A program made the position numbers and the translations under genes. Source: Gammaproteobacteria bacterium (GTDB lineage Bacteria; Pseudomonadota; Gammaproteobacteria; JADZEE01). From it: a DNA stretch of 64,000 bases. Every line of letters begins with the position of its first letter. The stretch's first letter is position 1. The DNA lies in assembly GCA_050183625.1 (NCBI GenBank), contig JBFXBD010000008.1, positions 2,521 through 66,520 of the forward strand. Direction: 5' to 3'. Of the stretch, positions 2,441 through 60,685 are shown one piece after another. The notes under the pieces were generated by a model, which saw only the letters and a list, made by a program, of their open reading frames with translations, ran no database searches and was not told the origin of the DNA.

Positions 2441-2441
2441 C

Positions 2442-4856
2442 ATGACGCCGCCGCATCGCGTCGCCGGTGGGCATCGTGCGCGCGCGGCGATTGCAACCGT
2501 CGTGCCGCCATTATTGATGTTGCTGTACCTGATGCTGGCGCCGGCCTGGCTTCAGGCGGCCGAGACCGCCTCCGCTCGCGATCTACGCGCCTGGGAGCGC
2601 ATCCTCGACCGCGGCGAGCGCGCGCTCGCCGCGGGCAGGCTCCGCGCCGATGCCGTGCGCCGGATCTGGGACGAGGTCGAGCCCGTGCGCGTGCTCGCAC
2701 GCGCCGATCAGCGTGCCTGGAAGGACGAGGTCAAGGCGCAGAAACAATTGCTGGCCGCGCTCGGAGCGGCGCCCGCGTCGGGGCAGCCGGCCGAGCCTGC
2801 CGACGTCGCCCGGCGCCGCGCGGCGTTGGACAAGGCGCTGGCCACGGCCGATGGGCGCGCCAGGAGCGCCGGGTTGATCGTCAAGCGTGCCGATGCGGTC
2901 CTGGAGCGGCTGGCGCAGGTCCGCTTCCAGCAACGTACGCGCTCGCTGCTGACACGCGGACCCTCGCCGCTCGACCTGGAAGTCTGGAACGCCGCGCGAT
3001 CGCAGTTGCAGGCGTTCGCCGCCCGCCTGCAGGTTCCCGCGGCGGTGCACACCGCGCGCCCGCCGTTGCCCGCGGTGTTGCTGCTGCTGGTGCTGCTCGC
3101 CGGGATCGCCGCCGGCGCGGCGCAGGCGATGCGCGCACTGCAGGCGCGCTACGGCCGCGATCCGACCGTGGAAGATCCGCCCTACCCGCGGCGCGTGCTG
3201 GCGGCGCTGACGGTGGCCGTCGGCCGCGGGTTGCTGCCGGCGTTCTTCGTCAGCGTGGTGCTGGCGCTGGCGTGGGTGTACCACGTCAAGGATCTGGTGG
3301 ATCCGAGGATCGGCACCCCGACCGGCATCATCACCGCGGTCGTCACCCTGCTGGTCGGCTCCGCGTTCGTGCGTGCAGCGTTCTCCCCGCTCAGCCCGCA
3401 GTGGCGCCTGCTGCCGGTATCGGCACAGGCTTCGCGAACGATGGGCCATCGCCTGTACCTGCTGGTGGTCGTGCTCGCGGCCGACATCGCCCTGCGCCAG
3501 ATGTTCGATTTCGGCACCGGGCCGGCCGAGGATCTGGCAAGCGTGTACTCCTTCTGCGCCAATACGCTCGCCTGCCTGCTGCTGCTGTCGGTGAACATCG
3601 GCTCGCTGTGGCGCCCCGAGGCACCGGGGGGCACCGTGCGCCGCCCCGGCACGCTGTGGCGGACGGTACGCGCCGCGACGATCGCAATCGCCATCCTGAC
3701 GCCGGTGGCGAACCTCGCCGGGTACGCGGGGCTGGCCGAGGCGGTGCTGCACTCGGCTTTGCGAACCGCGCTCGTGGTCTCGGTGCTGATCGCCGCGCAT
3801 GTGGCGCTGCGGGAGATCCTAGGGGAGGCACTCGCGCGCGACACCGGCACCGCAGCGGCGCTGCGACAGCGCATGGCGCTGACCGCCGACGGCGCGCGCG
3901 TGCTCGGGTTCTGGCTCTCGCTCGCCGCCGACGTGCTGCTGCTCGCGGTGGGCCTGTTCGGGCTGCTCTGGGCATTCGGCCTGGAGGCCGACGACGTCGA
4001 GCGCTGGCGTACCGGCCTGACCCAGGGCGTCGCCTTCGGCTCATATACGATCGCCCCGTTCGATCTGGCCGTGGCGCTGCTGGCCTTCATCGCCATCCAG
4101 GCACTCACGCGCGCCTCGCAGCAGGTCATCGAGCGCCGGGTGTTTCCGCAGACCCGGTTCGACATCGGCGTGCGCACCGCGATCAACGCCGGTGTGCGCT
4201 ACCTCGGCCTGACGATCGCCCTGCTGGCCGCGATTGCGATCCTGGGCATCGACCTCACCAAGCTCGCGATCATTGCCGGCGCCTTGTCGGTCGGCATCGG
4301 ATTCGGGCTGCAGAACGTCGTCAACAATTTCGTCTCCGGGCTGATCCTGCTGGTGGAGCGCCCGATCAAGATCGGCGACTGGATCGTCGTCGGCGACATC
4401 CAGGGTACGGTAAGGCGCATCAACGTGCGCGCGACGCAGATCGAGACCGCCCAGCGTGCCGACGTCATCGTCCCCAACGCCAACCTGCTGCAGGCCGCGG
4501 TGACCAACTGGACGCTGCGGGATCGGCAGGGGCGGGTCGAGGTTCAGCTCCTGGTGTCGTACGCCACGGAGATTGCGGACGCCGAGGAACTGCTGCGTGC
4601 CGCGGCGGCGGCGGAACCGCGGGTACGCGCCGACCCCGCGCCGCAGGTGCTGCTGACCCGATTCGCCGATGCCGGCATCGAGTTCGAGCTGCGTGCCTTC
4701 GTCGATGAAGTCGAGACCAAGGCGAGGGTCGAAAGCGATCTGCGCAAGGATATCCTGCGCCGCACGCGCGACGCGGGCATCGAGCTCGGCTATCCCAAGG
4801 CGGTGCAGCCGCTGCGCGGCTATGCGGCAGGCGGCGCCACGCCCATGTCACCGTAG
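2442..4856 (+). CDS. mscK: MscS-family mechanosensitive channel with long N-terminal periplasmic/TM extension (MscK/KefA-like)
   Basis: ATG at 2442, 2 nt after the upstream stop. 805 aa with multiple TM helices. C-terminal MscS core motif IKIGDWIVVGDIQGTVRRINVRATQIET. The 1938..2441 upstream extension in the ORF track is out of context (rejected). Confidence 0.85.
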   Translation: MTPPHRVAGGHRARAAIATVVPPLLMLLYLMLAPAWLQAAETASARDLRAWERILDRGERALAAGRLRADAVRRIWDEVEPVRVLARADQRAWKDEVKAQKQLLAALGAAPASGQPAEPADVARRRAALDKALATADGRARSAGLIVKRADAVLERLAQVRFQQRTRSLLTRGPSPLDLEVWNAARSQLQAFAARLQVPAAVHTARPPLPAVLLLLVLLAGIAAGAAQAMRALQARYGRDPTVEDPPYPRRVLAALTVAVGRGLLPAFFVSVVLALAWVYHVKDLVDPRIGTPTGIITAVVTLLVGSAFVRAAFSPLSPQWRLLPVSAQASRTMGHRLYLLVVVLAADIALRQMFDFGTGPAEDLASVYSFCANTLACLLLLSVNIGSLWRPEAPGGTVRRPGTLWRTVRAATIAIAILTPVANLAGYAGLAEAVLHSALRTALVVSVLIAAHVALREILGEALARDTGTAAALRQRMALTADGARVLGFWLSLAADVLLLAVGLFGLLWAFGLEADDVERWRTGLTQGVAFGSYTIAPFDLAVALLAFIAIQALTRASQQVIERRVFPQTRFDIGVRTAINAGVRYLGLTIALLAAIAILGIDLTKLAIIAGALSVGIGFGLQNVVNNFVSGLILLVERPIKIGDWIVVGDIQGTVRRINVRATQIETAQRADVIVPNANLLQAAVTNWTLRDRQGRVEVQLLVSYATEIADAEELLRAAAAAEPRVRADPAPQVLLTRFADAGIEFELRAFVDEVETKARVESDLRKDILRRTRDAGIELGYPKAVQPLRGYAAGGATPMSP

Positions 4857-5698
4857 CGGCAGGCCAGCAGGGTGAGATCGTCGCCGCGCCCGCCACGCGC
4901 GTGGCGCTGGACTTCGCCGAGCAACCGGTCGAGCAGGGTCTCCGGATCGGTGCCGCGATTCGCTTCCAGGGTCTGGACTATCCGCTGCGGACCGAACGAC
5001 CCGCCGGCACGGTCGCGGGCCTCCGGCACGCCGTCCGTGTAGGCCACCACCGTGTCGCCGGGTGCGAGGCGGCAGGTCTCGGTGACGTACGGCACGGGCT
5101 CCTCGGCGAACTGGCCGAGTGCGCAACCGCCCTCCGCGAAGCCCCGGATCGGCCCCTGCGCGGGCAGCACCAGGATGCTCGGGTGGCCGGCATGGCTCAC
5201 CGCCAGGGTCCCGTCGCGCCCGACGCGAAAGTAGGCCGCGGTCACCGCGCAGCCGGTGGGGTGCACGCAGAGCTGGGCGTTCAGCCGCGCCAGCATCTGG
5301 TGCGGGGGCAGATCCCGGCGCAGGCCGTCCAGCGCCGATTGCAGCAGCATGGTCATGAACGCCGCCGACAGGCCGTGGCCGGTGGCGTCGCCCAGCAGCA
5401 CGCCCAGTTCGCCCTCGCGGTTCAGGTGCAGGTGGTAGATGTCGCCCGAGACCTCGCGGAACGGCCAGTACCGGATCGCGGTCGAAAGGTGCGGCAGCAC
5501 CGGCGGCACCGGCAGGATCGCGCGCTGGAACTGGGCCGCCATGCGCAGGTCGTCGCGCAGTTGCTTGTTGCGCTCGATGAGCAGCTTCTCGACCCGCTGG
5601 CGCTTGGCGATCTCACGCCGGAGCATGGCATTCGCCCGCGCCAGCATGAGCGGATCGGTCTCGATCCCGTGGATGGACTGCCCGGCTGCCTGCCCCAT
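4820..5698 (-). CDS. PP2C-family (SpoIIE/RsbU-like) serine phosphatase with N-terminal coiled coil
   Basis: 292 aa. Has SGDIYHL...GDATGHG...DG and C-terminal GDDLTLL motifs typical of the SpoIIE/PP2C domain. Its 3' end overlaps the mscK end convergently by 37 nt. Confidence 0.8.
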   Translation of the reverse strand: MGQAAGQSIHGIETDPLMLARANAMLRREIAKRQRVEKLLIERNKQLRDDLRMAAQFQRAILPVPPVLPHLSTAIRYWPFREVSGDIYHLHLNREGELGVLLGDATGHGLSAAFMTMLLQSALDGLRRDLPPHQMLARLNAQLCVHPTGCAVTAAYFRVGRDGTLAVSHAGHPSILVLPAQGPIRGFAEGGCALGQFAEEPVPYVTETCRLAPGDTVVAYTDGVPEARDRAGGSFGPQRIVQTLEANRGTDPETLLDRLLGEVQRHARGGRGDDLTLLACRYGDMGVAPPAA

Positions 5699-5838
5699 GT
5701 CCCGATCCTGAGTTGTGCGTCGCCCGGCTGTTATCGGTCGCGGGCGGCGCCGGCTTCAATCCGGGGTTGATTATCCCGCCGCCCGGACCCATGTACCCCC
5801 CCAGGTATCCGTCCTTGCCAGGGGTGCAGGAACCGCCG

Positions 5839-8268
5839 ATGAACACCGAACTCGACAGGAAGCAGGACGCCGGCCCTGAAGCCGTCGCGGGTGGCGAAAC
5901 GCTCGACGCCCCGCGATCCGCCGCGACCGCCGAACGCGCATTGCCCGCCGACGCGATGATCGTCATCCCGGTGCGCAATGCGGTGCTGTTCCCGGGTGCG
6001 ATCATGCCGCTGGGGATCGGCCGCGCTTCCTCGATCGCCGCCGCCCGCGAGGCGGTCGCGCACGAGCGCCCGATCGCCGTGCTGCTGCAGCGCGATCCGG
6101 CACAGGACAACCCCGGCCCGGACGACCTGCACTGGGTGGGCACCGAGGCCCAGGTGATGCGGTTCATCGGCGGGCAGAACGGCCATCACATGATCTGCCA
6201 GGGCGAGCGGCGCGTGCGCGTGCTGCAGTTCCTGGAAGGCTGGCCGTACCTGGTTGCCCGTGTGTCGCGGGTGGAGGAGACAGCGCAGACCGGCAACGAG
6301 ATCGACGCCCGGGTGATGAGCCTGCGCGAGCGCGTGTCCGAAATCCTGCAACTCATGCCGCAGGTGCCGGCGGAATTCGCTGCCGGCCTGCAGAACGTGG
6401 AATCCGGCCGCCGGCTGGCCGACCTCGTCGCCGGCCTGCTGGACGTCACGATCGCGCAAAAGCAGGAACTGCTGGAGACCTTCGATCTGCGCGAGCGCCT
6501 GGACCGCGTCCTCGTGCACCTGGGCCAGCGCCTGGACGTGCTGCGCCTGTCCAGGCAGATCGACGACCAGACCCGCAGCTCGCTGGAAGACCAGCAGCGC
6601 AGGCACCTGCTGCGCGAGCAGATGAAGACGATCCGCAAGGAACTGGGCGAGGAGGGCGAACGCGACGAGGAACTGGAGGACCTCGAGCGCCGGATCGCCG
6701 AGGCGAAGATGCCGGCCGAGGTGGAGAAGCAGGCGCGCAAGGAACTCGCGCGGCTGCAGCGCATGCCCGACGGCGCCGGCGAGGCGTCCATGGTGCGCAC
6801 CTACCTGGAATGCCTGGTCGAGCTGCCGTGGGCGCCCGAAGACCCGCCCGCGATAGACATCGCCCGCGCGCGCGAGGTGCTGGACGCCGATCACTTCGGC
6901 CTGCAGAAGATCAAGCGCCGGATCCTGGAATACCTCGCCGTGCGCAAGCTCAATCCGAACGGCAGGAGCCCGATCCTGTGCTTCGTCGGCCCGCCGGGCG
7001 TGGGCAAGACATCGCTCGGGCAGAGCATCGCCCGCGCGACCGGCCGCAGGTTCGAGCGCCTGAGCCTGGGCGGCGTGCACGACGAGGCCGAGATCCGGGG
7101 CCATCGCCGCACCTACATCGGCTCGATGCCGGGCAACGTCATCCAGGGCGTGCGCAAGGCCGGCACCCGCAACGCCGTGTTCATGCTCGATGAGATCGAC
7201 AAGCTCGGGGCGGGCGGCTTCCACGGCGATCCGTCCTCGGCGCTGCTGGAGGTGCTGGATCCGGAGCAGAACTCGACGTTCCGGGACAACTACCTCGGGG
7301 TGCCGTTCGACCTGTCGCGGATCATGTTCATCGCCACCGCGAACGTGCTGGAGACCATCCCCGGCCCGTTGCGTGACCGCATGGAGATCGTCCAGCTCGC
7401 CGGCTACACCGAGCAGGAGAAGATCGAGATCGCGCGCCGGTACCTGCTGCGCCGGCAGCTGGAGGTCAACGGCCTGGATGCCGATCGCTGCAGCGTGGAC
7501 GACGGCACGCTGCGCGCATTGGTGCACGACTACACCCGCGAGGCCGGGGTGAGAAACCTGGAGCGCGAGCTGGGCGCGGTGCTGCGCCACGCCGCGGTGC
7601 GGATCGCCGAGGGCGAGGCCGGGCCCATCGAACTGCGCGCCGGGTCGCTGCCGGGGATCCTCGGCCCGGCGAAGTTCGAGAGCGAGATCGCCATGCACGC
7701 CGGCGTGCCGGGCGTGGCGACCGGCCTGGCGTGGACGCCGGTGGGCGGGGACATCCTGTTCATCGAGTCCACGCGCGTGCCGGGCGGCGCGCGCCTCATC
7801 CTCACCGGCCAGCTCGGCGAGGTGATGAAGGAGAGCGCGCAGGCCGCGGTGTCGCTGGTGAAGGCACGTGCCGCGGCGCTGGGCGTGGATCCGGAGTCGT
7901 TCGAGAAAAGCGACCTGCACCTGCACGTGCCGGCCGGCGCTACCCCCAAGGACGGTCCGAGCGCGGGCGTGGCGCTGTTCGTGTCGCTGGTGTCCCTGCT
8001 CACCGGCCGCGCGGTGCGGCCGGACACGGCGATGACCGGCGAGATCAGCCTGCGCGGGCTGGTGCTGCCGGTCGGCGGCATCAAGGAGAAGGTGCTGGCC
8101 GCTCAGCGCGCCGGGATCACGCGCGTGCTGCTGCCGGCGCGCAACCGCAAGGACATGGAGGACATCCCGGCCGAGATCCGCGACGCGCTCGAGTTCCACT
8201 TCATCGAACGCGTGGACGACGCGCTGCAACTGGCGCTCGCGGCGGTGGTGGAGCCGGCCGCGGCCTGA
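5839..8268 (+). CDS. lon: ATP-dependent Lon protease
   Basis: LON N-domain (IVIPVRNAVLFPG). Walker A GPPGVGKTSLGQSIA. Protease-domain catalytic Ser in PKDGPSAGVALF. ATG at 5839 preceded by AGGA. The upstream MCVARL... start is less plausible. Confidence 0.9.
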   Translation: MNTELDRKQDAGPEAVAGGETLDAPRSAATAERALPADAMIVIPVRNAVLFPGAIMPLGIGRASSIAAAREAVAHERPIAVLLQRDPAQDNPGPDDLHWVGTEAQVMRFIGGQNGHHMICQGERRVRVLQFLEGWPYLVARVSRVEETAQTGNEIDARVMSLRERVSEILQLMPQVPAEFAAGLQNVESGRRLADLVAGLLDVTIAQKQELLETFDLRERLDRVLVHLGQRLDVLRLSRQIDDQTRSSLEDQQRRHLLREQMKTIRKELGEEGERDEELEDLERRIAEAKMPAEVEKQARKELARLQRMPDGAGEASMVRTYLECLVELPWAPEDPPAIDIARAREVLDADHFGLQKIKRRILEYLAVRKLNPNGRSPILCFVGPPGVGKTSLGQSIARATGRRFERLSLGGVHDEAEIRGHRRTYIGSMPGNVIQGVRKAGTRNAVFMLDEIDKLGAGGFHGDPSSALLEVLDPEQNSTFRDNYLGVPFDLSRIMFIATANVLETIPGPLRDRMEIVQLAGYTEQEKIEIARRYLLRRQLEVNGLDADRCSVDDGTLRALVHDYTREAGVRNLERELGAVLRHAAVRIAEGEAGPIELRAGSLPGILGPAKFESEIAMHAGVPGVATGLAWTPVGGDILFIESTRVPGGARLILTGQLGEVMKESAQAAVSLVKARAAALGVDPESFEKSDLHLHVPAGATPKDGPSAGVALFVSLVSLLTGRAVRPDTAMTGEISLRGLVLPVGGIKEKVLAAQRAGITRVLLPARNRKDMEDIPAEIRDALEFHFIERVDDALQLALAAVVEPAAA

Positions 8269-8295
8269 GTGGCCGCGGCCGGGCCCTGCTCCCGG

Positions 8296-8727
8296 TCAGA
8301 ACTTGCCCTTGAGTATCAGGGTGGCCTTCTTGTCCTTGATGCTGACTTCCCCGGTGAGCTTGAGATCCTTGCCGACATCCAGCCCGGACTCCTTCTCGAC
8401 CAGGTCCCTGTACCACTTGTCCATGCCCTTCTGCCAGTCGGGCCAGTCCTTCTTCTCGTCCGGCACGTTGGTCTTGAGGATCCCCGATATCTGGTCTTCG
8501 ACCTTGCCGGTCCGTTCCAGGTAGGAGTTCTCCAGATCCTTTAGCGATTTGCGCACGTCGAACAGGCGCTTGCCATCCTGCGGCGTGGCGTCCTTCTTCT
8601 CCTCCAGGCAGTCGCGCTCATCGCGCAGCTTCTTGGTTTCCTCGACGGTCTTCTTCGCTTCCTGCGCCAGTGCCTTCACCTTCTTGGCGATCTCCTTCTT
8701 CGTCTCCTCGAGTAGCTTCTTGTCCAT
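8296..8727 (-). CDS. Lys/Glu-rich coiled-coil hypothetical protein (143 aa), compositionally atypical
   Basis: Clean ORF with ~55% GC against a ~70% background. Very high K/E content, no signal peptide. Convergent with lon. Confidence 0.5.
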   Translation of the reverse strand: MDKKLLEETKKEIAKKVKALAQEAKKTVEETKKLRDERDCLEEKKDATPQDGKRLFDVRKSLKDLENSYLERTGKVEDQISGILKTNVPDEKKDWPDWQKGMDKWYRDLVEKESGLDVGKDLKLTGEVSIKDKKATLILKGKF

Positions 8728-8849
8728 GCACGATGCTCCAGGGCGGTGGGCTCGGGGTCGATTGTCGATCCGGCCGCAGGCGCGGGGTACGACCGGCCCC
8801 GGGATCGGTGACGGATCTCACTGACTGCCGGCCCGCGCAGCCGCGGCGC

Positions 8850-9744: not shown

Positions 9745-9975
9745 CGGAACCGCCCCCGTCGTTGCGAGCCCGCGCAGCGGGCGCGGCAACCCATGCTTCG
9801 CCAACGATGCCGAAGCGGCACGGATTGCTTCGCTGCGCTATCCATGAACCACCCCCGTCCTTGCGAGGAGCGAAGCGACGAAGCAATCCACGTGCTGCCG
9901 GTGGCATCGAGGCCGCGTGGGTCGCTTCGCTGCGCTCGCGACGACGAAGGGCCGGTTCGGCGTCGCAATGACGAG
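9745..9975. repeat. REP/MITE-like palindromic intergenic repeat, copy A (composite, ~230 bp)
   Basis: Contains the core ggattgcttcgtcgcttcgctcctcgcaatgacg / cgtcgtcgcgagcgcagcgaagcgaccc and their inverted complements. The same modules recur at ~19.9, 36.9, 41.0 and 60.6 kb. Confidence 0.8.
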
Positions 9976-19887: not shown

Positions 19888-19914
19888 GAACCGCCCCTTC
19901 GCCGTCGCTAGCGC

Positions 19915-20095
19915 ACCGACCCACGCGGGCTCGATGCTACCGGCAGCGCGTGGATTGCTTCGTCGCTTCGCTCCTCGCAATGACGGGGTGCGGTTCATGG
20001 ATAGGCCGCATGGCGGCCGCGGCAATCCAGGCGGCGTGGACGAATCCGGCGCTGCATGGGTCGCTTCGCTGCGCTCGCGACGACGATGGGGCGTG
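19915..20095. repeat. REP/MITE-like repeat, copy B
   Basis: Shares cagcgcgtggattgcttcgtcgcttcgctcctcgcaatgacggggtgcggttcatggataggccgc...gggtcgcttcgctgcgctcgcgacgacg with copy C almost base-for-base. Confidence 0.8.
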
Positions 20096-30792: not shown

Positions 30793-33591
30793 ATGGCCAG
30801 TAACAATCCCGTACCCAAGTCGAAGTTCGGCGTCGTCTTCCAGTACGCGCAGAGCGTGAAGTCCGGCGTGATCAGTGCGACTTCGATGGTGGTCGATTCC
30901 AACATCGCGCGCACGAACTGGCGCCAGGGGCTCAAGCTCAAGAACGTCCCGCACCCGGAGACGGACCTCGCCATCCTGCCGCCGGACTCGAAGACCCTGG
31001 CGAATTACCAGAACGCCAAGCGTGACTACGACGGCATCGATGCGACGCTGAGCGACATGGCGACCTCGAAATGGGAAAAGTTCGAGAAGGATCAGAAGAG
31101 CGCCGAGGCCGCGGTGGCGAACTTCGACCAGGCCATCGAGAACGCGCAGAAGGACATCGAGGCCGAGGTGGTCAGGCGCAGCAAGCTCCCGAACGAAATC
31201 CGCGCCAAGGTGACGCCCCCGCCTTCCGAGAGCGATGTCGCGCTGATCGCCAAGGAAGCCCCCGAACCCGGCGCGGTCTCCAAGGCCAGGGAGGAACTCG
31301 ACAGGCAACTGAAGGCGTTGATCAACGGCAGGGGCGACCCTCACGGGGCGTACGCGGTACTTGAAAAGAGCGCGCACCTGGCGGCCGGGGAGGCCGGAAA
31401 GGCGGTCGAAGCCCTCGCAAAGGCCGTGGAAACTGAAAAGGAGCGCCGCGCGAAAGCGGTCGAGGATCTGGAAGCGAAGCGTCCAGGCCTGCCGACCGGG
31501 GAGCAACTGGCCCTGCTTCCGGCGGACGACAAGGCCGGGGAGGCGTATTCCGGAGCGGGTGACACTGCCAGGAAGGCGATGCAGTCCCTGAACGATGCCC
31601 TGGCCAGGCCGTCGGACGAGTTCGCGAAGGCGCAGAAGACCGCGGCCAAGGCCGTCGAGGACCTGTCCGATGCCGTGTCCAAGGTCAACGATGCGATCCT
31701 GGTCGAAACGAAGCGCCGCCAGGAGAACACGCAATCGGTCCAGAACGACGCGCCGAAGAGCCGGGAACTTCCCGAAGGCGGTGGCATGCTCCCGGGCGAC
31801 CACAAGGCGGTCGCGGCTTTCGGAAGTGGGAATGAAGCGCTGAAGAAGGCCCTGGACGGGCTGGAGAAGTCCGCGAACGCCTCCTACGAGGACTACGAGT
31901 CCGCGTCGCAACTGGCGAAGGAATCGTTGAAGACCTGGAAGTCCAACGCCGATGCGGTCTTGAAGGCGGTGCAGACGGAAACCGATCGACGGCAGTCGGC
32001 GAGGAAGGGCGTGCTCGTTTCGTTCGACGTGGCGGAAACGAACGCTTCCGTGACCAGGAACGTCAAGCTCAAGGAAAGGTACACCACCGCGAAGGAGGGC
32101 TACCAGAAGGCGCTGGATGGGTTGGACCTGAAGATGAACGGCCCGGCGGCGGACTTCGAGGACGCATTCGGGCTGGCGCAGGGAGCGCACAAGAAGATCC
32201 AGCAGGAAATGTCGTCCCTCGCGGGTTCGGTGAAGGAACAGCTTGCCAAGGAGCGCAAGGAGCGTCGCGCGGCCCTCGACCCTGTGGAGAAGGCGCCATC
32301 GCAGCCCGAAGTCAGCCTGCTCGACGCGAACGACGAACGCCGCAAAGGCTACGAACGCCTGGTGACGGAGCACGGCCGCCAGGTGACGGCCTACGACAAG
32401 CTGCTGAAGAACGACCAGGCGAAGGAGGACGAGCTCAAGATTGCCGAGAACGCGGCGCTCGATTCGCGCAAGAACCTGGACGAGGCCTGCCTCGCCCTCA
32501 AGCAGGCGATCGCAGACGAGAAATCGAACCGGAAGGAGGTCTACGAGGAGCTTTCGGCGAAGATCGATCTGCCGGTCGAGGATGGTCTCGCGCTGCTACC
32601 CAAGGAGGATCAGGAGCGGTATCGCAAGGCATTGTCGGTTCACCAGAAGGGGCTGGCCGATCTGCAGAAGGTTGCGGACAGCGCTTCGGCGCAGTACCGG
32701 AAGGTCGAAGCGACGGCGCGGGAGGCCCGGAAAGCCCTGGTTTCCACGGTGAGCGACGTGGGCGAAAAGGCCAACTCGAAGTGGCTGGAGGCACTGCCCC
32801 GGTTCGTCGAGGAACTGGACGGCAAGCTGGAAGCCCTCAAGTCGGGCCTGCAGAAGATGGGCCACCGCAACGCGGATCATTACGGCAAGGTCGTGGACCA
32901 GGAGCGGGAACGGCTCAGGAACACCGACAACTACAAGTCCGTCCGCATCCAGTTCGAGAGATCGTTGCGGGATGTGCTGCAGCAGATGGAACTGGATCTC
33001 AAGGACGGGAAAATTGGGGTGGCGGCCCTCTCGGTGGAGAAGGTGCGGGCGAAGGAGGCCTATCCGAACATCGTCAAGTCGCAGGCGGTCGTCGTGGAGA
33101 AGATGATGTCGGATCTCAAGGGAGCCGTGCCGACCAGCATCGAGGACATCGAGAAGCTGCGCGTGGACTGCAACAGGAAGCTGGCGGACCTGGCCAAGGA
33201 CGTATTCGGCGCCACCGGGCAGAAGCTGCGTCCGCGCAGCTGGGTGGCGACGGCGGGCGCGACCGCCGGCAGGATGATGCCCACGGCGATGAAGCGCATC
33301 TCGCAGGCGCAGATCGACGAATCGGAACGCGTGTTCCGCGGCGCGGGCGCCAAGGAGAGAACCAGCCCGCGCCGCGGCTGGACCCACATCCACATCGGCG
33401 GCGACTACTCGGACAACCTGCTCCTGCACACCGGGACCAACATCGTCGTCGGCTTCCTCGGCCACATGAGCACCGCCTCGAAGGACAAGGAAAACGTCGC
33501 CGCGAGCGAAAAGCTGATGGACGACTTCGTGGAGGGAAATGCCGTGGCGGTCGCGATCCTGGGGCGGGACCTCTACGAGATCGAGGATTGA
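30793..33591 (+). CDS. hypothetical 932-aa alpha-helical repeat protein with distinct C-terminal ~110-aa domain (WTHIHIGGDYSDNLLLHTGTNIVVGFLGHM)
   Basis: ATG at 30793 preceded by GAGGGAA. Long uninterrupted ORF, reduced GC (~60%). Repetitive KA(V/L)E.L helical segments. Ser/Lys-rich non-acidic N-terminal ~35 aa. Confidence 0.65.
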   Translation: MASNNPVPKSKFGVVFQYAQSVKSGVISATSMVVDSNIARTNWRQGLKLKNVPHPETDLAILPPDSKTLANYQNAKRDYDGIDATLSDMATSKWEKFEKDQKSAEAAVANFDQAIENAQKDIEAEVVRRSKLPNEIRAKVTPPPSESDVALIAKEAPEPGAVSKAREELDRQLKALINGRGDPHGAYAVLEKSAHLAAGEAGKAVEALAKAVETEKERRAKAVEDLEAKRPGLPTGEQLALLPADDKAGEAYSGAGDTARKAMQSLNDALARPSDEFAKAQKTAAKAVEDLSDAVSKVNDAILVETKRRQENTQSVQNDAPKSRELPEGGGMLPGDHKAVAAFGSGNEALKKALDGLEKSANASYEDYESASQLAKESLKTWKSNADAVLKAVQTETDRRQSARKGVLVSFDVAETNASVTRNVKLKERYTTAKEGYQKALDGLDLKMNGPAADFEDAFGLAQGAHKKIQQEMSSLAGSVKEQLAKERKERRAALDPVEKAPSQPEVSLLDANDERRKGYERLVTEHGRQVTAYDKLLKNDQAKEDELKIAENAALDSRKNLDEACLALKQAIADEKSNRKEVYEELSAKIDLPVEDGLALLPKEDQERYRKALSVHQKGLADLQKVADSASAQYRKVEATAREARKALVSTVSDVGEKANSKWLEALPRFVEELDGKLEALKSGLQKMGHRNADHYGKVVDQERERLRNTDNYKSVRIQFERSLRDVLQQMELDLKDGKIGVAALSVEKVRAKEAYPNIVKSQAVVVEKMMSDLKGAVPTSIEDIEKLRVDCNRKLADLAKDVFGATGQKLRPRSWVATAGATAGRMMPTAMKRISQAQIDESERVFRGAGAKERTSPRRGWTHIHIGGDYSDNLLLHTGTNIVVGFLGHMSTASKDKENVAASEKLMDDFVEGNAVAVAILGRDLYEIED

Positions 33592-33758: not shown

Positions 33759-34316
33759 ATGTTCCAACCCCTGGATGATTGCGGCTTCAGCCTGCCCCAT
33801 GCGGCCCTGTACGCCCAAATGACCCGGTGGTACCGTTTCCAGCCGGATGCCGTCCGGGTACACGCGAAGGATCGCGACGGCAGTACGCGGGTTGGCGTTG
33901 ATGGCGACATTCGCTACGAAGAGCCGATGCTGCTTGATCCAGTCGACGAAGACGATCCGGTCTTGCTCTTCTTTGACCTCGAAGGTCACGCAGTTGCGGC
34001 GCCACACGTCAACGAAGCCTGGGGGGCGACTCGCGTCCAGTATTCGGTCGATCGCTGCAACCTGGACTTCCCGCCACTCATGGACAAATGGAAAGCGGTC
34101 TGGGCAGAGTGCTGTAATCGTGTGACGGAGTACCGGCGGGAGCTTGGTTCGTACCAAAGGGACCCAACCAACGCCGTCGCGCGGGACCGCGTCAAGCAAG
34201 CCGCGAAGCGCGTGCGGCCGATGCTCCGGGAGGAACAGGATCTGTCTTCGATGGCCCGCGCATGCGTTGAGAGTGCCGGAGATCCATGCGTCGGCGGGTT
34301 TCCGCGGTCCGTATGA
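33759..34316 (+). CDS. hypothetical small protein (185 aa) downstream of the 932-aa gene
   Basis: Co-directional with flanking genes and ends 5 nt before the next gene's start. An ORF of similar length (33726..34337) is also open on the opposite strand, so strand assignment is uncertain. Confidence 0.35.
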   Translation: MFQPLDDCGFSLPHAALYAQMTRWYRFQPDAVRVHAKDRDGSTRVGVDGDIRYEEPMLLDPVDEDDPVLLFFDLEGHAVAAPHVNEAWGATRVQYSVDRCNLDFPPLMDKWKAVWAECCNRVTEYRRELGSYQRDPTNAVARDRVKQAAKRVRPMLREEQDLSSMARACVESAGDPCVGGFPRSV

Positions 34317-34321
34317 AGGCG

Positions 34322-35796
34322 CGGTCGAATTGATCACTCTTGCTACCCTTCAGTCGCTCGCTGCCCGCGGCGAGTCCGAGTCGCTCGAGTTCAAGCGCTC
34401 GACCGCCGAGCTGAAGCGCGCCGGGGAAACGCTCTGCGCGCTCCTGAACGGCGAGGGTGGCAAGGTGCTGATCGGGATCGGCCCCGACTGCAAGATCGTC
34501 GGCCAGGAGGTGTCAGACTCCACCCTCCGCGACATCGCGGCGATGCTCGGCCGCTTCGAGCCGCCCGCGCGCGTCGAGATGAGCCGCGTGGACATCGGGA
34601 ATCGCCGGCGGGTGATTGTGCTCGAGGCCGCTCCGTCCCGGCAGTTCGCACCATTCGTTTTCGAATCGAGGCCATACAAGCGCGTGGGCTCTACCACCAC
34701 GGTGATGTCGCAGGAGGAGTCCGCGCGCCTGCTTCTCGACCGCAATCACAGCCGGCACCGCTGAGAGAACCAACCGGCCGCGGGCGTGCGTCTCGAAGAT
34801 CTGGACCGCGAGGAGATCCTGCGCACGCGCGCCACCGCCATCGAGCAGCGGCGCCTCTCGGCCGGCACGAGCATGGACGTGGGCGACATCCTCGATCGGC
34901 TCGGCCTGCGAATGGACGGGCAGGTCACACAGGCCGCGCAGATGCTCTACGGGACGAAGTTCCTGCCCGACTACCCGCAGGCACTGCTCAAGCTCGGCCG
35001 CTTCCGGGGCAAGAAGATCACCGGCGATATCCTCGACAGCAAGCAGGAGTACCTGCACGCGTTCGCGATGGTCCGAGAGGCGATCGCCTGGCTCGACCGG
35101 ACGTTGCCGCTGTCTGCGCGCTTCCCGAAGGGCGCCGTCAACCGGGAGGATCGGTTGCCGGTGCCGGCGGAGGCGCTGCGAGAGATTGTCATCAACGCCG
35201 TCATCCACCGCGACGTGAGCAACCCGAGCTCGTACGTTGCAATCGCGGTGTTCGACGATCGCATCGAGATCCACAGCATTGGCGCGTTTCCGACCGGTAT
35301 TCGCGCCGAGCTGCTCGCGCGGGAGCACCGCTCGATCCCGCGCAACCCGCTCATTGCCGGCGCCTTCCATCGCACGGGCGCTATCGAGATCTGGGGCCGG
35401 GGTACGAATCGGGTCATCGAGGCGTGCCGCGCGTACGGCATCGCGGACCCGACGTTCACCGAGGCTTCGGGGGCCGTGACGGTGACGTTCAGGGCCGAGG
35501 TCCTGGCGGGGGCACGGGACATGGGGCCGGGTGGGCACCAAGTAGGCACCAAGTCGGCACTAAGTCAGTACCAAGTTCAAGTGCTTGAACTATCGGTTCT
35601 TCCTCGCGCACTGGCGGAACTCATGGGTCCCTCGGGACGATCCGATCGAACCAAGTTTCGGGACCAAGTTCTGCGCCCGCTGATCGAGGCAGGACTACTC
35701 GAAATGACCATCCCCGACAAACCGCGAAGCTCGAAGCAGCGGTATCGCATCACAGACGCCGGGCGTGAAATGTTGGTCGCCGCGAGCGGCAGTTGA
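34322..35796 (+). pseudogene. AlbA_2 (Schlafen-like) + HATPase_c_4 + wHTH 'RecG-like' putative regulator, interrupted by an in-frame TGA at 34762-34764
   Basis: N-terminal GESESLEFKRS (AlbA_2 hallmark). The downstream ORF is in the same frame (34144 and 34786 both frame 1), separated only by TGA + 7 codons. Combined length ~491 aa fits the family. TTG/GTG start uncertain. Confidence 0.5.
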
Positions 35797-35932
35797 GCGC
35801 AGCAAGCCCGGCGCCGGGTGTGCGTCCAGACGCGGGGCGCCGCTGCGACGCCATGGTGGCACCGGCGCCCGTAGCACTGAACCAGTTCAGGCGGGCTCAC
35901 TATACTGGCGGCCTCTTCCCTGCGAGGCCGCC

Positions 35933-36895
35933 ATGTCCGCCATCGACTTCCACCGCGCCATGCTCGGCGACCGGGTGCGCAACCGCGCCCTGTACCGGGC
36001 GCTGAAGCAGCACATCGTTCCCGGCCGCACCACCGTTGCCGACATCGGCGCCGGCACCGGCGTGCTCGCCTTCATGGCCCGCCGCCTCGGTGCGCGCGAG
36101 GTGTACCTGTACGAGTACGGGCCGATCCTCGGGCTCGCCGAGCAACTCGCGCAGGACAACCGCATCGACGGCCTGGTGTTCTTGCCCGCGCACAGCCGCG
36201 AGGTGGAGAACCCGCCGCCGGTGGACCTCGTCGTCTGCGAGACGCTCGGCAACTTCGCCTACGAGGAGAACATCATCGAGACCCTCGCCGACGCGCGCCG
36301 GTTCCTGAACCCCGGCGGCCGCATCGTCCCGCAGCACATCGCGCAGTTCGCCGCGCCGGTGGTGTCGCCGCGCTTCCACCGCGAGCTGGCCTGCTGGGGC
36401 CGCGTCGGCCACGGCCTCGACTTCGCCCGCGCCCAGCGCATGAGCATGGACAACATGTACGTGCGCCGCGTGCGGCCGCGCGATCTGCTCGGCGGCATGG
36501 CCTCCGCGCGGCGCTGGGACGCGGTGGCGCTCGGCCGGCCGGCGCGCAGCCTGCGCCGCGGCACGGTGCGCTGGGAGATCGCGCGGGCCGCGACCGTCCA
36601 CGGCTTCGCGCTGTGGTGGGACTGCACGCTGGCGCCCGGAATCATGCTCGGCACCGCGCCCGACGGTCCGCGCACGCACTGGGAGCAGATCTACGTGCCG
36701 ATGCAGGAGCCGATGGCGCTGGCGCGCGGGGACGCGCTGGAACTGCGGATGACGTCGGATACGAGCGGGGCGGGGGCAGCCGTCGCGTGGGATGTGGCAC
36801 ACAGGCGCGGCGGGCGAGTCATGGCAAGACGCGGCGGGGATATCCTCAAGGGTGATTTGCAGTGGCAGGCCGACCTCGAGGCAAGCGATGCATAA
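35933..36895 (+). CDS. class I SAM-dependent methyltransferase of the protein arginine N-methyltransferase (PRMT) type
   Basis: Motif I VADIGAGTGVLAFMA, double-E-like VVCETLGNFAYEENIIE, and a THW loop (GPRTHWEQIYVP), the diagnostic PRMT signature. Confidence 0.75.
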   Translation: MSAIDFHRAMLGDRVRNRALYRALKQHIVPGRTTVADIGAGTGVLAFMARRLGAREVYLYEYGPILGLAEQLAQDNRIDGLVFLPAHSREVENPPPVDLVVCETLGNFAYEENIIETLADARRFLNPGGRIVPQHIAQFAAPVVSPRFHRELACWGRVGHGLDFARAQRMSMDNMYVRRVRPRDLLGGMASARRWDAVALGRPARSLRRGTVRWEIARAATVHGFALWWDCTLAPGIMLGTAPDGPRTHWEQIYVPMQEPMALARGDALELRMTSDTSGAGAAVAWDVAHRRGGRVMARRGGDILKGDLQWQADLEASDA

Positions 36896-36899
36896 GCCA

Positions 36900-37160
36900 A
36901 TGGCATGGCCCCGGCAGATTGCGGCCCTGAACCGCCCCTTCGTCGTCGCGAGCGCACGCGAAGCGACCCAAGCGGGTTCGATGCCGCCGGCAGCGCGTGG
37001 ATTGCTTCGTCGCTTCGCTCCTCGCAATGACGGGGTGCGGTTCATGGATAGGCCGCGCAGCGGCCGCGGCAATCCAGGCGGCCTGGGCCGAATCAGCGCT
37101 GCATGGGTCGCTTCGCTGCGCTCGCGACGACGAAGGGGCGGTTCAGGGCCACGATCGGCC
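36900..37160. repeat. REP/MITE-like repeat, copy C (composite ~260 bp)
   Basis: Same modules as copies A and B, with terminal inverted segments ccttcgtcgtcgcgagcgcacgcgaagcgaccc ... gggtcgcttcgctgcgctcgcgacgacgaagg. Confidence 0.8.
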
Positions 37161-37213
37161 GGGGTTGCCCCGGTTCCGCCCCGCGATGAGTTGCGTGCCG
37201 CACTGCACGGCCG

Positions 37214-37573
37214 GTGATGAATCGACCCATGACTAACCACCTCTACCACATCACCACGGCCCCCGAGCTCGCTGCCGCCGCGCGCACCGGCGTCTACCTT
37301 CCCGAAGCGTTCCCCCGCGAAGGCTTCATTCACTGCTCGCACGCCTACCAGCTCCTCGCCACCGCCAGCAAGCACTATCCCGGCCGCACCGGCCTGGTGG
37401 TTCTCCGGATCGACCCGGCGAAGGTCCCGGCCCGCGTCGTCGAGGAGGATCTCCACGGCACCGGCCAGGCCTTCCCGCACATCTACGGCCCGCTGCCGAT
37501 GGCTGCAGTGGTGGCGGTGCACGATTTCCCCTGCGGGCCGAACGGCTTCGCGCTGCCGGCGGGCGTCGTCTGA
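37214..37573 (+). CDS. DUF952-domain protein
   Basis: LYHITTAPEL...EGFIHCS pattern typical of DUF952. Confidence 0.65.
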   Translation: MMNRPMTNHLYHITTAPELAAAARTGVYLPEAFPREGFIHCSHAYQLLATASKHYPGRTGLVVLRIDPAKVPARVVEEDLHGTGQAFPHIYGPLPMAAVVAVHDFPCGPNGFALPAGVV

Positions 37574-37609
37574 GCTCGTGAGCCGGCGCCTTGTCCCGCC
37601 GGCACCGCG

Positions 37610-38698
37610 GTGACAGACTTGCAGGCCATGGAGGAAGCCGCGACTACGGAAACGCTCGGAGCCGCCGCGGCCCCGGCCACGGTCTTCCACGGCGTCAGCT
37701 TCGATCCCGTCACCCGCGTCACACGCAGCTTCGGCCCCGGGGATCTGCAGCGCGAACTCGAAGATCCGGCCGTGTTCTCCTGGATCGATCTGCAGGCGCC
37801 GGACATGGGCGCGCTGAACGATCTGCTGCGGCGCTGGGAGGTGGACCTCGTCCTCACCAGCCATTTCGACGAGCCGGAGATCCTGCCGCGCATCGTCGAG
37901 CGGCCGCAGTGCATCGCGTTCTACCTGTACGAGGTGGTCGATCCCGAGCAGCACCTGGACACCGCCAGCACCCTGGAGGCGATCGACTTCACGCGCATGG
38001 TGCTGATCCTGGGCGCGGACTTCGTCATCACCTTCCATCGCCGCCCGCTCGCGGCCATGGACCACGTGAAGGCGGCCTGCATCGAGTCGTTCCAGCTCGC
38101 CGGGCGCTCGCCGGGTTTCGTCGCCTTCCTGCTCCTGGAACGCTGCGTCTACGACTACGCCCACCTGAACCTCGCCAACGACAATTTCCTGGACGTGATC
38201 GAGGAACGCATGTTCGCCGGCGGCGAGCACGCGCTGGACGACGGCGTCGCCATCGCCGGCCGCAACATCCTCACGCTGAAGAAGCTCGCCTCCAGCCTGC
38301 ACATCGTGCTGATGCTGCTGGCCACCAAGCAGAGCCCGTTCATCAGCCACGACGCGCGCGCCTCGTTCCAGGGCCTGCTGGTGAACGCGTCGTCGGTGCG
38401 CGCCGCGATCGATTCCTCGCGCGTGCTGCTGGACGGCATCCTGGTCCACATGCAGGCGCACGCCACCAGGCGCACCAGCGAGATCGCGCGCGTGCTCACC
38501 GTGGTCTCCGGGATCATGCTGCCGCTGACGCTCATCACCGGCATCTACGGCATGAACTTCGAGCACATGCCGGAGCTGAAGCACCCCTACGGCTACTACA
38601 TCGTGCTTGGCGTCATCGCCACGGTGGGCGCCGGGCTGTACCTGCTGTTCCGGCGCCTGCGCTGGGTCGGCACCGGCCGCAGCCGCGCGCGCCGGTAG
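37610..38698 (+). CDS. corA: CorA-family divalent-cation (Mg2+/Co2+) transporter
   Basis: C-terminal two TM helices with the YGMNFEHMPE (GMN) signature. Cytoplasmic N-domain. Confidence 0.85.
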   Translation: MTDLQAMEEAATTETLGAAAAPATVFHGVSFDPVTRVTRSFGPGDLQRELEDPAVFSWIDLQAPDMGALNDLLRRWEVDLVLTSHFDEPEILPRIVERPQCIAFYLYEVVDPEQHLDTASTLEAIDFTRMVLILGADFVITFHRRPLAAMDHVKAACIESFQLAGRSPGFVAFLLLERCVYDYAHLNLANDNFLDVIEERMFAGGEHALDDGVAIAGRNILTLKKLASSLHIVLMLLATKQSPFISHDARASFQGLLVNASSVRAAIDSSRVLLDGILVHMQAHATRRTSEIARVLTVVSGIMLPLTLITGIYGMNFEHMPELKHPYGYYIVLGVIATVGAGLYLLFRRLRWVGTGRSRARR

Positions 38699-38735
38699 GG
38701 CGCGTTTACGCCGTTTTTATACCCGCGGGCGGATA

Positions 38736-40298
38736 ATGGCCGCGGGCTCCAGGCCAGGTCCGAAGGCCATGCACACTCGCGAGGGGATCGGTCCGCTGCG
38801 GCGCTATGCCGAAGCCGCGGGCGCCTGCGTGCTCGTCACCGCTGCCGCGATGCCGATTGCGGAGCGCCTGGACCCGACCAACGTCGCCATGCTCTATCTC
38901 CTGGCGGTCGCCGCGGTCGCGGTGCGGAGCGGGCGCGGCCCGGCGGTGTTCGCCGCTGTGCTGGGCGTGGGCGGCTTCGATTTCTTCTTCGTCCCCCCGC
39001 GCTTCACTTTCGCCGTGGGGGACGCGCAGTACCTGGTCACGTTCGCGGTGATGCTCGCCGTTGCGCTGGTCATCTCCGGCCTCACCGGCGGGCTCGCCCA
39101 GCACGCACGTGCATCCGCCGCGCGCGAGCGCGACATGCGCGCGCTCTACGCCCTGGCGAGCCGGCTGTCTGCGGTGCTGCGCGCGCAGGACGTGGAGCGG
39201 GAAGTGGCGGAGTTCCTCGCACAGGGGTTCGGCGCGCGCGCGCGGTTGCTTCTCGCGGGCGCGGACGAGTCGCTGGTCGATGTTTCCGGCGCACGCCCGG
39301 ATCCCACCCGGCCCGAGTCCATCGCCGCCGGGGTGGTGCTCTCCGGCGGCCGCGCGCATGCCTCCAGCCAGCCGGCGGACGACGGCCTGGTCCATCTGCT
39401 GCTGCCGCTGCGCGGCGCCGTACGCGTGCGCGGCGTGCTCGACGTGGGCGCGTCGCCTGACGCGGCCGAACGAGTCGAACATGGCCGCAGCCTGCTCGAA
39501 GCGGTCGCCACGCTCGCCGCTACCGCGCTGGAGCGCCAGCATTTCGTCGAGATCGCGCGCGCCACCGAGGTGGAGATTGCTGCCGAACGGCTGCGCGCGT
39601 CGATCCTGTCCGCGCTTTCGCACGACGTACGCACGCCCCTGACCGCGCTCTACGGCCTGGCTGACACTCTCGCCGCGGGCCACCCGCCATTGCCCCCGGC
39701 GGCGCGGGAGACCGCCGCGGCGATCCGCGACCAGGCGCTGCGGCTCTCGCGCATGGTCGCGAACCTGCTCGATCTGGCCCGGCTGCGCAGCGGCCGGGTG
39801 ATGCTGCGTAGGGAGTGGCAGCCGATCGAGGAGGTGATCGGCGCCGGGATCAATCTGCTCGGCGCCGCGCTGCGCGACCATCGGGTCGAAGTGGACGTTC
39901 CTGAGGACTTTCCGCTGCTGGCGTTCGACGCGGTGCTGATGGAGCGCGTGGTCTGCAATCTGCTGGAGAATGCCGCCCGCTTCGCCCCGGCCGGCACGCC
40001 GATCCGGATCCAGGCACGCATGGACGCAGGCCAGGCAGTCATCGAGGTGTGCGATCAGGGTCCGGGTTTTGCGCCGGACCGGGTCGCGCACATTTTCGAA
40101 CCGTTCGGACGCGAGGCGCCGGCCGCGGGCGCAGGTACCGGCGTCGGACTCGCAATCTGCCGTGCGATCCTCGACGCGCACGATGCGGAGATCCAGGCGT
40201 TCGCCGGGCCGGGCGGGCGCGTGCGGATCGTGCTGCCGGCGGGCTCTCCACCGCCGGTGCACGCGGAGGACGAGGCCTGCCAGGGTATTCCCGCATGA
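38736..40298 (+). CDS. kdpD: KdpD-type sensor histidine kinase lacking the N-terminal KdpD/Usp sensing domains
   Basis: Begins directly with the KdpD 4-TM module (DFFFVPPRFTFAVGDAQYL signature). Followed by GAF-like linker, HisKA (LSHDVRTPLT) and HATPase (GTGVGLAICR). Upstream is corA, so there is no room for the missing ~350 aa. Alternative start at 38769. Confidence 0.8.
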   Translation: MAAGSRPGPKAMHTREGIGPLRRYAEAAGACVLVTAAAMPIAERLDPTNVAMLYLLAVAAVAVRSGRGPAVFAAVLGVGGFDFFFVPPRFTFAVGDAQYLVTFAVMLAVALVISGLTGGLAQHARASAARERDMRALYALASRLSAVLRAQDVEREVAEFLAQGFGARARLLLAGADESLVDVSGARPDPTRPESIAAGVVLSGGRAHASSQPADDGLVHLLLPLRGAVRVRGVLDVGASPDAAERVEHGRSLLEAVATLAATALERQHFVEIARATEVEIAAERLRASILSALSHDVRTPLTALYGLADTLAAGHPPLPPAARETAAAIRDQALRLSRMVANLLDLARLRSGRVMLRREWQPIEEVIGAGINLLGAALRDHRVEVDVPEDFPLLAFDAVLMERVVCNLLENAARFAPAGTPIRIQARMDAGQAVIEVCDQGPGFAPDRVAHIFEPFGREAPAAGAGTGVGLAICRAILDAHDAEIQAFAGPGGRVRIVLPAGSPPPVHAEDEACQGIPA

Positions 40299-40981: not shown

Positions 40982-41090
40982 CCCGCCCCATCGTCGTCGC
41001 GAGCGCAGCGAAGCGACCCACGCGGCCTCGATGCCACCGGCAGCGCGTGGATTGCTTCGTCGCTTCGCTCCTCGCAAGGACATGATGACG
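40982..41090. repeat. REP/MITE-like repeat, copy D (single module ~105 bp)
   Basis: ccatcgtcgtcgcgagcgcagcgaagcgaccc...cagcgcgtggattgcttcgtcgcttcgctcctcgcaagg. Confidence 0.75.
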
Positions 41091-60544: not shown

Positions 60545-60685
60545 ACCATGAGCCGCGTCCCGTCATTGCGAGGCCGCTTAGCGGCCGCCGCAATCCATGC
60601 GGCCTGGACGCGTTCGGCGCCGCATGGTCCGCTTCGCTGCGCCGGCGACGACGAAGGGGCGGTTCATGGCCTCGATTTGAAGGAG
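60545..60685. repeat. REP/MITE-like repeat, copy E
   Basis: cgtcattgcgagg...gcggccgccgcaatccatgcggc...ggtccgcttcgctgcgccggcgacgacgaagg modules. Confidence 0.7.

Follow-up and report, generated by a model that had tools for sequence, protein, structure and literature searches.

The 64-kb stretch of DNA from an uncultured gammaproteobacterium analyzed here (the window) contains an open reading frame (ORF) at 35933-36895 on the + strand, from an ATG at 35933 to the end of the stop codon at 36895, whose 320-residue product we assign with great confidence to the family of protein arginine methyltransferases (PRMTs). Because every catalytic residue is conserved, the sequence makes guanidino-N-methyltransferase chemistry very likely. 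As to its role, we regard a peptidyl-arginine methyltransferase that stands alone and works on proteins of the cell as somewhat more probable than all other readings together, and our preference for such a substrate over each of the two main rivals, the arginine of a small peptide and free arginine, is modest.

Family assignment by profile and structure

A phmmer search against all PDB chains returned CARM1 as the best match (E=4.1e-29, residues 8-269 of the window protein), followed by PRMT6 (3e-26) and then by PRMT8, PRMT2, PRMT1, PRMT3 and PRMT7. Among the matches listed, the best 60 of 76, there were only eukaryotic PRMTs, with the double-E and THW loops in register. The Pfam model PRMT_C scored 42.9 bits against a cut-off of 27, its 'oligomerization subdomain' match spanning residues 139-274, and the remaining Pfam matches were to generic methyltransferase domains or to the Rossmann part of PrmA. 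In NCBIfam no model scored above its cut-off. The AlphaFold2 model, calculated from an alignment of 20 sequences, has a mean pLDDT (per-residue confidence) of 93.5 and a pTM (predicted TM-score) of 0.89, and consists of a Rossmann domain for binding of S-adenosylmethionine (SAM) and a C-terminal beta-barrel. When this model was compared with the PDB in Foldseek, the top 50 matches were all type I PRMTs (TM 0.76-0.84), with PRMT1 and PRMT8 superposing at TM 0.83-0.84 and a root mean square deviation of 2.7 Å over some 315 columns.

An initial annotation of this ORF had proposed a bacterial PRMT-like methyltransferase from three motifs, SAM motif I, a double-E loop and the sequence GPRTHWEQIY. 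All three are present, and they lie in register with the PRMTs of the PDB and not by chance. Profile, structure and residue comparisons agree on membership in the PRMT family and not on a generic small-molecule or rRNA methyltransferase.

The start of the gene is preceded at 35924..35927 by GAGG, a Shine-Dalgarno-like word that we read from the sequence 5 nt 5' of the ATG. An alternative, longer in-frame reading begins with GTG at 35765. As the homologues all open with M-x-I-[ED]-[FY]-[HQ]-R where the ATG lies, we take 35933 to be the real start, giving an enzyme with a predicted size of ~35 kDa. A scan for promoters and terminators found none.

In the NCBI database the identical protein is named '50S ribosomal protein L11 methyltransferase', and JGI names relatives "protein arginine N-methyltransferase 1". 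The NCBIfam PrmA models reach 10.8-25.2 bits on the window protein against cut-offs of 183-269, and the NCBI name is therefore a misannotation. Note that the NCBI pipeline systematically gives this label to bacterial proteins of the PRMT fold (P0001 and its relatives; H1 and H3), and that those so named fall at least ~160 bits short of the PrmA equivalog cut-offs.

Catalytic residues and loops

For residue assignments we used PRMT1 as a reference, its sequence being identical to that of PDB entry 1ORH save for the engineered E153Q exchange of the latter, and we judged conservation on 20 homologues and on 23 representatives of the clade described below. The SAM motif I region, VADIGAGTGVLAFMA, occupies residues 35-49. 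Within it, V35-ADIGAGTG-43 (36035..36061, +) aligns with the PRMT1 motif such that D37, G39 and G41 correspond to D76, G78 and G80. The acidic residue following motif I, E61 (36113..36115, +), corresponds to E100 of PRMT1, the binder of the ribose hydroxyls, and is a glutamate in 22 of the 23 clade representatives and an aspartate in the other one. In the double-E loop region, VVCETLGNFAYEEN at residues 100-113, the segment E103-TLGNFAYE-E112 (36239..36268, +) places two glutamates nine residues apart, aligned with E144 and E153 of PRMT1 and with E258 and E267 of CARM1, and both are invariant. The THW loop region GPRTHWEQIY spans residues 245-254, with T248-H249-W250 (36674..36682, +) matching T292-H293-W294 of PRMT1 and invariant in all 23 representatives. 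Among the 20 homologues E103, E112, H249 and W250 are likewise invariant, and T248 is nearly so.

The N-terminal helix, H7-R16 (35951..35980, +), retains H7, M10, D13 and R16 at the positions of H45, M48, D51 and R54 of PRMT1. Across the clade D13 and R16 are invariant, position 7 is histidine or glutamine, and position 10 is methionine, isoleucine or leucine. M155 of PRMT1 is replaced by I114, a position with isoleucine, leucine or methionine in the clade, and Y148 by N107, an asparagine in most clade members. A predicted dimerization arm, residues 143-183 (36359..36481, +), is inserted in the beta-barrel and aligns with residues 185-225 of PRMT1; in the AlphaFold2 model it contains helices at 147-157 and 165-172.

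In eukaryotic type I PRMTs the YFxxY helix, alpha-X, closes over the SAM cofactor. No such helix precedes H7-R16 in the window protein, which begins at PRMT1 position 39 and lacks counterparts of Y35, F36 and Y39. The in-frame upstream extension of the ORF contains no YFxxY motif either, and a short N-terminus is common to the whole clade, with starts 4-11 residues before the conserved His/Gln. Judged from these alignments, it is chiefly by the absent helix that the structure departs from that of the eukaryotic enzymes. The initial description of motif I, the double-E loop and the THW loop as hallmarks of eukaryotic type I PRMTs is supported, with the lack of the YFxxY helix as a caveat.

Distribution and phylogeny

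A word-indexed protein search retrieved 1183 proteins at E<=1e-5, the best of them 52-63% identical and ~310 residues long, and an exhaustive search of 1.84 billion representatives yielded 513 clusters at E<=1e-30 and, with the limit relaxed to E<=1e-10, 4207. With more than 1000 metagenomic family members, the window protein is no singleton. Scanning 185,579 species genomes with two patterns gave 73 loci, a count that is a lower bound. The carriers are mostly uncultured Gammaproteobacteria, together with ~18 Peribacteria/Peregrinibacteria of the candidate phyla radiation (CPR), the cultured gamma proteobacterium HdN1 and two relatives, and single metagenome-assembled genomes (MAGs) of Myxococcales, Verrucomicrobiia and Rhodospirillaceae. 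The clade spans two distant bacterial lineages, small-genome CPR bacteria included. That bacterial PRMT homologues are rare, as initially stated, is broadly borne out for this clade in the species genomes, with the size of the metagenomic family as a caveat; and of the accompanying statement that their substrates are unknown, the part concerning this clade stands, although for some bacterial proteins of the PRMT fold the substrate is known, SznE acting on free arginine.

In neighbor-joining (NJ) analysis with 200 replicates, the window protein and its 23 representatives form a distinct clade with 98.5% bootstrap support, while PRMT1 and CARM1 pair in 100% of the replicates and never fall inside it. 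Clustered at 50% identity, the representatives give a star-like NJ tree, which leaves the bacterial subgroups and the eukaryotic PRMTs without a resolved order. Two paralogous proteins of the amoebozoan Planoprotostelium fungivorum, P0146 and P0274 (PRP87972.1, PRP82533.1), encoded on contigs of 275 kb and 92 kb and 35-38% identical to the window protein, nest inside the otherwise bacterial clade. Their placement suggests gene transfer between bacteria and eukaryotes, in either direction. A phage origin was considered and rejected, as no phage homologue was found at E<=1e-8.

Absence of pathway partners

All-against-all clustering of the ORFs from the 73 loci and the window found no conserved partner, no neighbor recurring in more than 17 loci. 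Those that do recur, MATE efflux, a TonB receptor, SDR, a pyrroloquinoline quinone (PQQ) dehydrogenase, Crp and an alpha/beta hydrolase, look like lineage synteny, and none of them is present in the window. Local synteny is preserved within sub-lineages of the clade, which, with the bootstrap support and the spread over two distant bacterial lineages, speaks for a function that has been kept. Gene calls around other members gave unrelated housekeeping or miscellaneous genes. Pfam-less genes directly upstream in the CPR and HdN1 loci were considered as hidden partners and discarded as lineage-specific. Genes for ribosomally synthesized and post-translationally modified peptides (RiPPs) or for non-ribosomal peptide synthetases (NRPS) do not occur as neighbors of the clade in the 73 loci.

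Proposed function and alternative readings

By analogy with PRMT1 we infer an active, dimeric enzyme of minimal two-domain architecture that would transfer the methyl group of SAM to a guanidino nitrogen of arginine. Its Rossmann domain, with motif I, E61 and R16, would hold SAM, E103 and E112 of the double-E loop would clamp and polarize the guanidinium group of the substrate, H249 of the THW loop would pair with D13, and the helical arm 143-183 would mediate formation of a head-to-tail homodimer. The type I product, asymmetric dimethylarginine, is governed by residues of the Met48/Met155 type; with M10 and I114 at these two 'methionine' positions, the expected products are monomethyl-arginine and probably asymmetric dimethyl-arginine. 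The gene would be expressed as a stand-alone unit outside any biosynthetic cluster, and the enzyme would most likely act on peptidyl-arginine in one or several proteins of the cell. We favor a cellular-protein substrate because of the stand-alone arrangement, the retention of the gene in small-genome CPR bacteria, the retention of THW and the greater similarity of the window protein to protein- and peptide-acting enzymes.

Several observations weigh against this proposal. The gene context is silent on the substrate and offers no positive pointer to a protein target. The YFxxY helix is absent from the window protein and its clade, and cofactor binding or activity could differ without it. E129 of PRMT1 aligns with R89, a non-conserved position. 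With a pI of 9.6 the window protein is basic, in contrast to the acidic PRMT1, but the family median is a pI of 5.3, and we set charge aside as uninformative with respect to the substrate. P0157, the closest relative whose gene context is informative, is 35% identical and comes from a RiPP-type cluster, yet it has an intact THW loop, and THW therefore does not separate protein from peptide substrates. Finally, the GHW signature of presumed free-arginine enzymes comes from two sequences, SznE itself not among them.

The same relative, P0157, is central to one of the two foremost alternatives, each of which we consider unlikely at about one chance in several: that the enzyme tailors a ribosomal or non-ribosomal peptide product, methylating the arginine of a small peptide whose pathway genes lie elsewhere in the genome. 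According to Aravind and colleagues, the bacterial proteins closest to PRMTs are methylases of peptides in secondary-metabolite operons (PMC3417536). P0157 aligns with the window protein at 175 bits, CARM1 at 120 bits. Its locus, L080, holds at 2147-8813 a RiPP-like cluster in which a 382-residue methyltransferase of the PRMT fold follows genes for NTP_transf_5, ScmC-like, PqqD, transglutaminase-core (protease) and radical-SAM/SPASM proteins. A 75-residue ORF with an Arg/Pro-rich C-terminus (...GGRPRPIRV) likewise precedes the methyltransferase, and genes for an ATP-binding cassette (ABC) exporter follow the methyltransferase. From its gene content L080 is a candidate cluster for an arginine-methylated RiPP. 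Against peptide tailoring by the window protein, tblastn with the L080 RiPP genes found no match in the 73 loci and the 64-kb window except for generic ABC ATPases, and tailoring genes normally cluster with their pathway. The CPR carriers of the clade, moreover, have very small genomes, and P0169, a shell member that likewise carries THW, stands alone among housekeeping genes.

Equally improbable in our estimate is a small-molecule enzyme of the SznE/StzE kind, whose substrate would be free L-arginine, or a related metabolite like agmatine, methylated on the guanidino group. SznE and StzE are arginine-guanidino methyltransferases acting on free arginine (PMC11705231; PMC12637814). We compared the window protein with this type through two distant relatives defined by their context, one linked to SznF and one to GNAT and PotD genes, SznE itself, UniProt A0A411EW25, not being part of the comparison. 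The first is encoded on plasmid pVL1_1 of Methylobacterium indicum (NZ_AP024146.1; locus L082, 5908-12526), where 10 bp separate an SznE-like gene of the PRMT fold with GHW from the full-length SznF homologue downstream of it (E=1e-112 to the SznF of the PDB), the same arrangement as that of SznE and SznF. Genes for Rieske, ATP-grasp, alpha/beta-hydrolase and M20 peptidase proteins follow, and the methyltransferase is again annotated as an L11 methyltransferase; the locus probably encodes the biosynthesis of a natural product of the N-nitroso or a related N-N type. The second, on a plasmid of Tropicibacter oceani (NZ_CP124617.1; locus L081, 4158-6984), is a 404-residue protein with the GHW variant and without a PRMT_C match, encoded in a GntR-GNAT-methyltransferase row beside an ABC importer of the PotD/PotF type, a context that may point to a small molecule, a polyamine or guanidino compound, as the substrate.

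The window protein differs from both. They are 25-28% identical to it, carry GHW and not THW, have a different double-E loop, and lie at or below the PRMT_C cut-off. Their scores against it, 71-86 bits, are below the 120 bits of CARM1, to which the window protein is thus closer, and it has THW and ETLGNFAYEE, without the GHW/E-x-x-D...GEG signature that these two sequences define. In addition, tblastn with the confirmed SznF homologue found no SznF-like gene near any family member in the 73 loci or in the window.

We consider it quite improbable that the protein is inactive, or that it belongs to the adjoining low-GC islet or to a methylation-associated defence system (MADS) with a target other than arginine. 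The gene does abut an islet with an AlbA_2/HATPase_c_4 gene, the YFxxY helix is missing, and PADLOC reports a mad2 match (7.8e-12). This match is, however, confined to the Rossmann domain (residues 9-151 against positions 268-412 of the 492 in mad2), and none of the four flanking proteins that were scanned has a mad match. Across the clade every catalytic residue is invariant, which speaks against a dead enzyme. Membership in the islet was rejected since the GC content of the gene, 73.5%, matches the 70-74% of the genomic background, and homologues elsewhere occur without islet genes. The reading as ribosomal protein L11 lysine methyltransferase PrmA is effectively refuted, as beyond the NCBI name it can draw on a Pfam PrmA match (2.8e-7) that is limited to the generic Rossmann part (residues 25-132 against 156-257 of a 296-position profile), whereas the C-terminal half is a PRMT beta-barrel without the PrmA substrate-recognition domain and the equivalog scores are those given above.

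Returning to the peptidyl-arginine methyltransferase that we prefer, a wider proposal is that the clade as a whole represents a housekeeping protein-arginine methyltransferase of bacteria including CPR, a minimal PRMT that lacks alpha-X and would methylate cellular proteins. We put this forward tentatively, as something a little short of an even chance. If this is true, PRMT-type arginine methylation would become established as a post-translational modification of bacteria, and a bacterial lineage with amoebal gene exchange would be at hand for studying the origin of eukaryotic PRMTs.

Neighboring genes and a dispersed palindromic repeat

The islet just 5' of the gene, a stretch of 62-67% GC at ~29.4-35.7 kb, is the atypical segment that the initial annotation had placed immediately upstream, and its position was confirmed. 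It contains a 932-residue ORF (30793-33591) without Pfam or PADLOC match and an apparently split gene, with AlbA_2 at 34315-34764 and HATPase_c_4/Fic-like_C at 34786-35796. The latter part gives weak PADLOC matches to Aga_SIR2-PNTD models. On the 3' side the PRMT gene is followed by a palindromic repeat and then by genes for a DUF952 protein (37214-37573), a CorA-like transporter (37610-38698) and a histidine kinase. The kinase (within 37214-40298) combines DUF4118, HisKA and HATPase_c and looks like KdpD reduced to its C-terminal half, the N-terminal sensor domain being absent; there is an overlap between the end of corA and the longest ORF of the kinase.

The repeat, at 36909..37164, begins 14 nt after the PRMT stop codon and is a compound palindrome of 256 nt, with outer arms of 48 nt that are 94% complementary and inner arms that are 71% complementary. 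Its core words, for which 0 occurrences are expected in the window, are found there 7 and 4 times, and there are at least 5 repeat sites in the 64 kb, again against 0 expected; all are palindromic, intergenic and dispersed. The further sites lie at ~9857-9951, 19895-20090, 40987-41081 and ~60638-60658, and alignment of the copies shows two of full length (~256 nt), plus two or more half copies. Spurious ORFs run through the repeat (e.g. '...DCFVASLLAMT...'). The transcript is predicted to form a hairpin of extreme stability, at -209 kcal/mol (z = -11.8), and the palindrome may serve as a transcript-end hairpin with a terminator role. Classical repetitive extragenic palindromic (REP) elements are short (~20-40 nt) imperfect palindromes, intergenic and dispersed in many copies. 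The earlier description of a REP element downstream of the gene fits the dispersed palindrome, but not its length; "REP-like" is acceptable in spirit, and by its size the repeat is nearer to an element resembling a miniature inverted-repeat transposable element (MITE).

Significance

Arginine methylation of the PRMT type is regarded as a regulatory modification of eukaryotes. A catalytically intact stand-alone PRMT in Gammaproteobacteria and CPR, as the sequences indicate, is a clonable candidate for asking whether bacteria use arginine methylation, and one carrier, strain HdN1, whose homologue lies at 5995-6933 of locus L052, is cultured. The contribution of the YFxxY helix could also be examined on this protein as a minimal scaffold, and the contrast of THW and GHW may give a simple sequence rule to tell peptidyl-arginine from free-arginine enzymes. 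Its assignment moreover corrects the propagated "L11 methyltransferase" misannotation.

In the literature we found no paper on a characterized bacterial PRMT of this kind, and the phrases "bacterial PRMT" and "prokaryotic PRMT" occurred in none of the papers searched. On the family assignment of SznE and on RiPP arginine N-methyltransferases, nothing was found beyond the review by Aravind and colleagues and mentions of SznE. As bacterial PRMT homologues had already been noted in that review (PMC3417536) and are acknowledged in automatic annotation, the window protein is no more than moderately surprising.

Comparison with known systems

The eukaryotic type I PRMTs (PRMT1, PRMT8, PRMT6 and CARM1/PRMT4) share with the window protein the Rossmann domain and the beta-barrel with its helical arm, as well as motif I, the glutamate following it, the double-E and THW loops and the histidine, aspartate and arginine of the N-terminal helix. 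The window protein is, however, 20-29% identical to them, has neither accessory domains nor the YFxxY helix, belongs to a separate clade, and is encoded in bacteria.

PRMT-like methylases of RiPP and secondary-metabolite clusters, exemplified by P0157, are bacterial as well, and with ~35% identity, intact double-E and THW loops and, in P0157, a start close to the conserved histidine they resemble the window clade. They are often longer (375-390 residues) and lie inside biosynthetic clusters, whereas members of the window clade have ~310 residues and stand alone. In a Myxococcales MAG (locus L078, 8001-9305; GMV42695.1), a 434-residue protein of the PRMT fold has a GreA_GreB-family match besides its PRMT core, an unusual fusion, and is encoded within a few kb of genes for B12/radical-SAM and SPASM proteins.

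SznE and StzE, paired with SznF, have in common with the window protein a PRMT-like Rossmann domain and barrel, a double-E-type loop and guanidino chemistry. The SznF-linked relative compared here, 25% identical to the window protein, differs from it in carrying GHW in place of THW, E-x-x-D...GEG in place of E-x-x-G...EE, and a conserved 'P-x-W-H-F-P-M' N-terminus. PrmA, a methyltransferase of lysine and the N-terminal amine with a substrate-recognition domain of its own, shares the class I SAM-dependent Rossmann fold and a similar motif I, but the window protein scores ~160 bits or more below all PrmA equivalog cut-offs and has the PRMT barrel instead.

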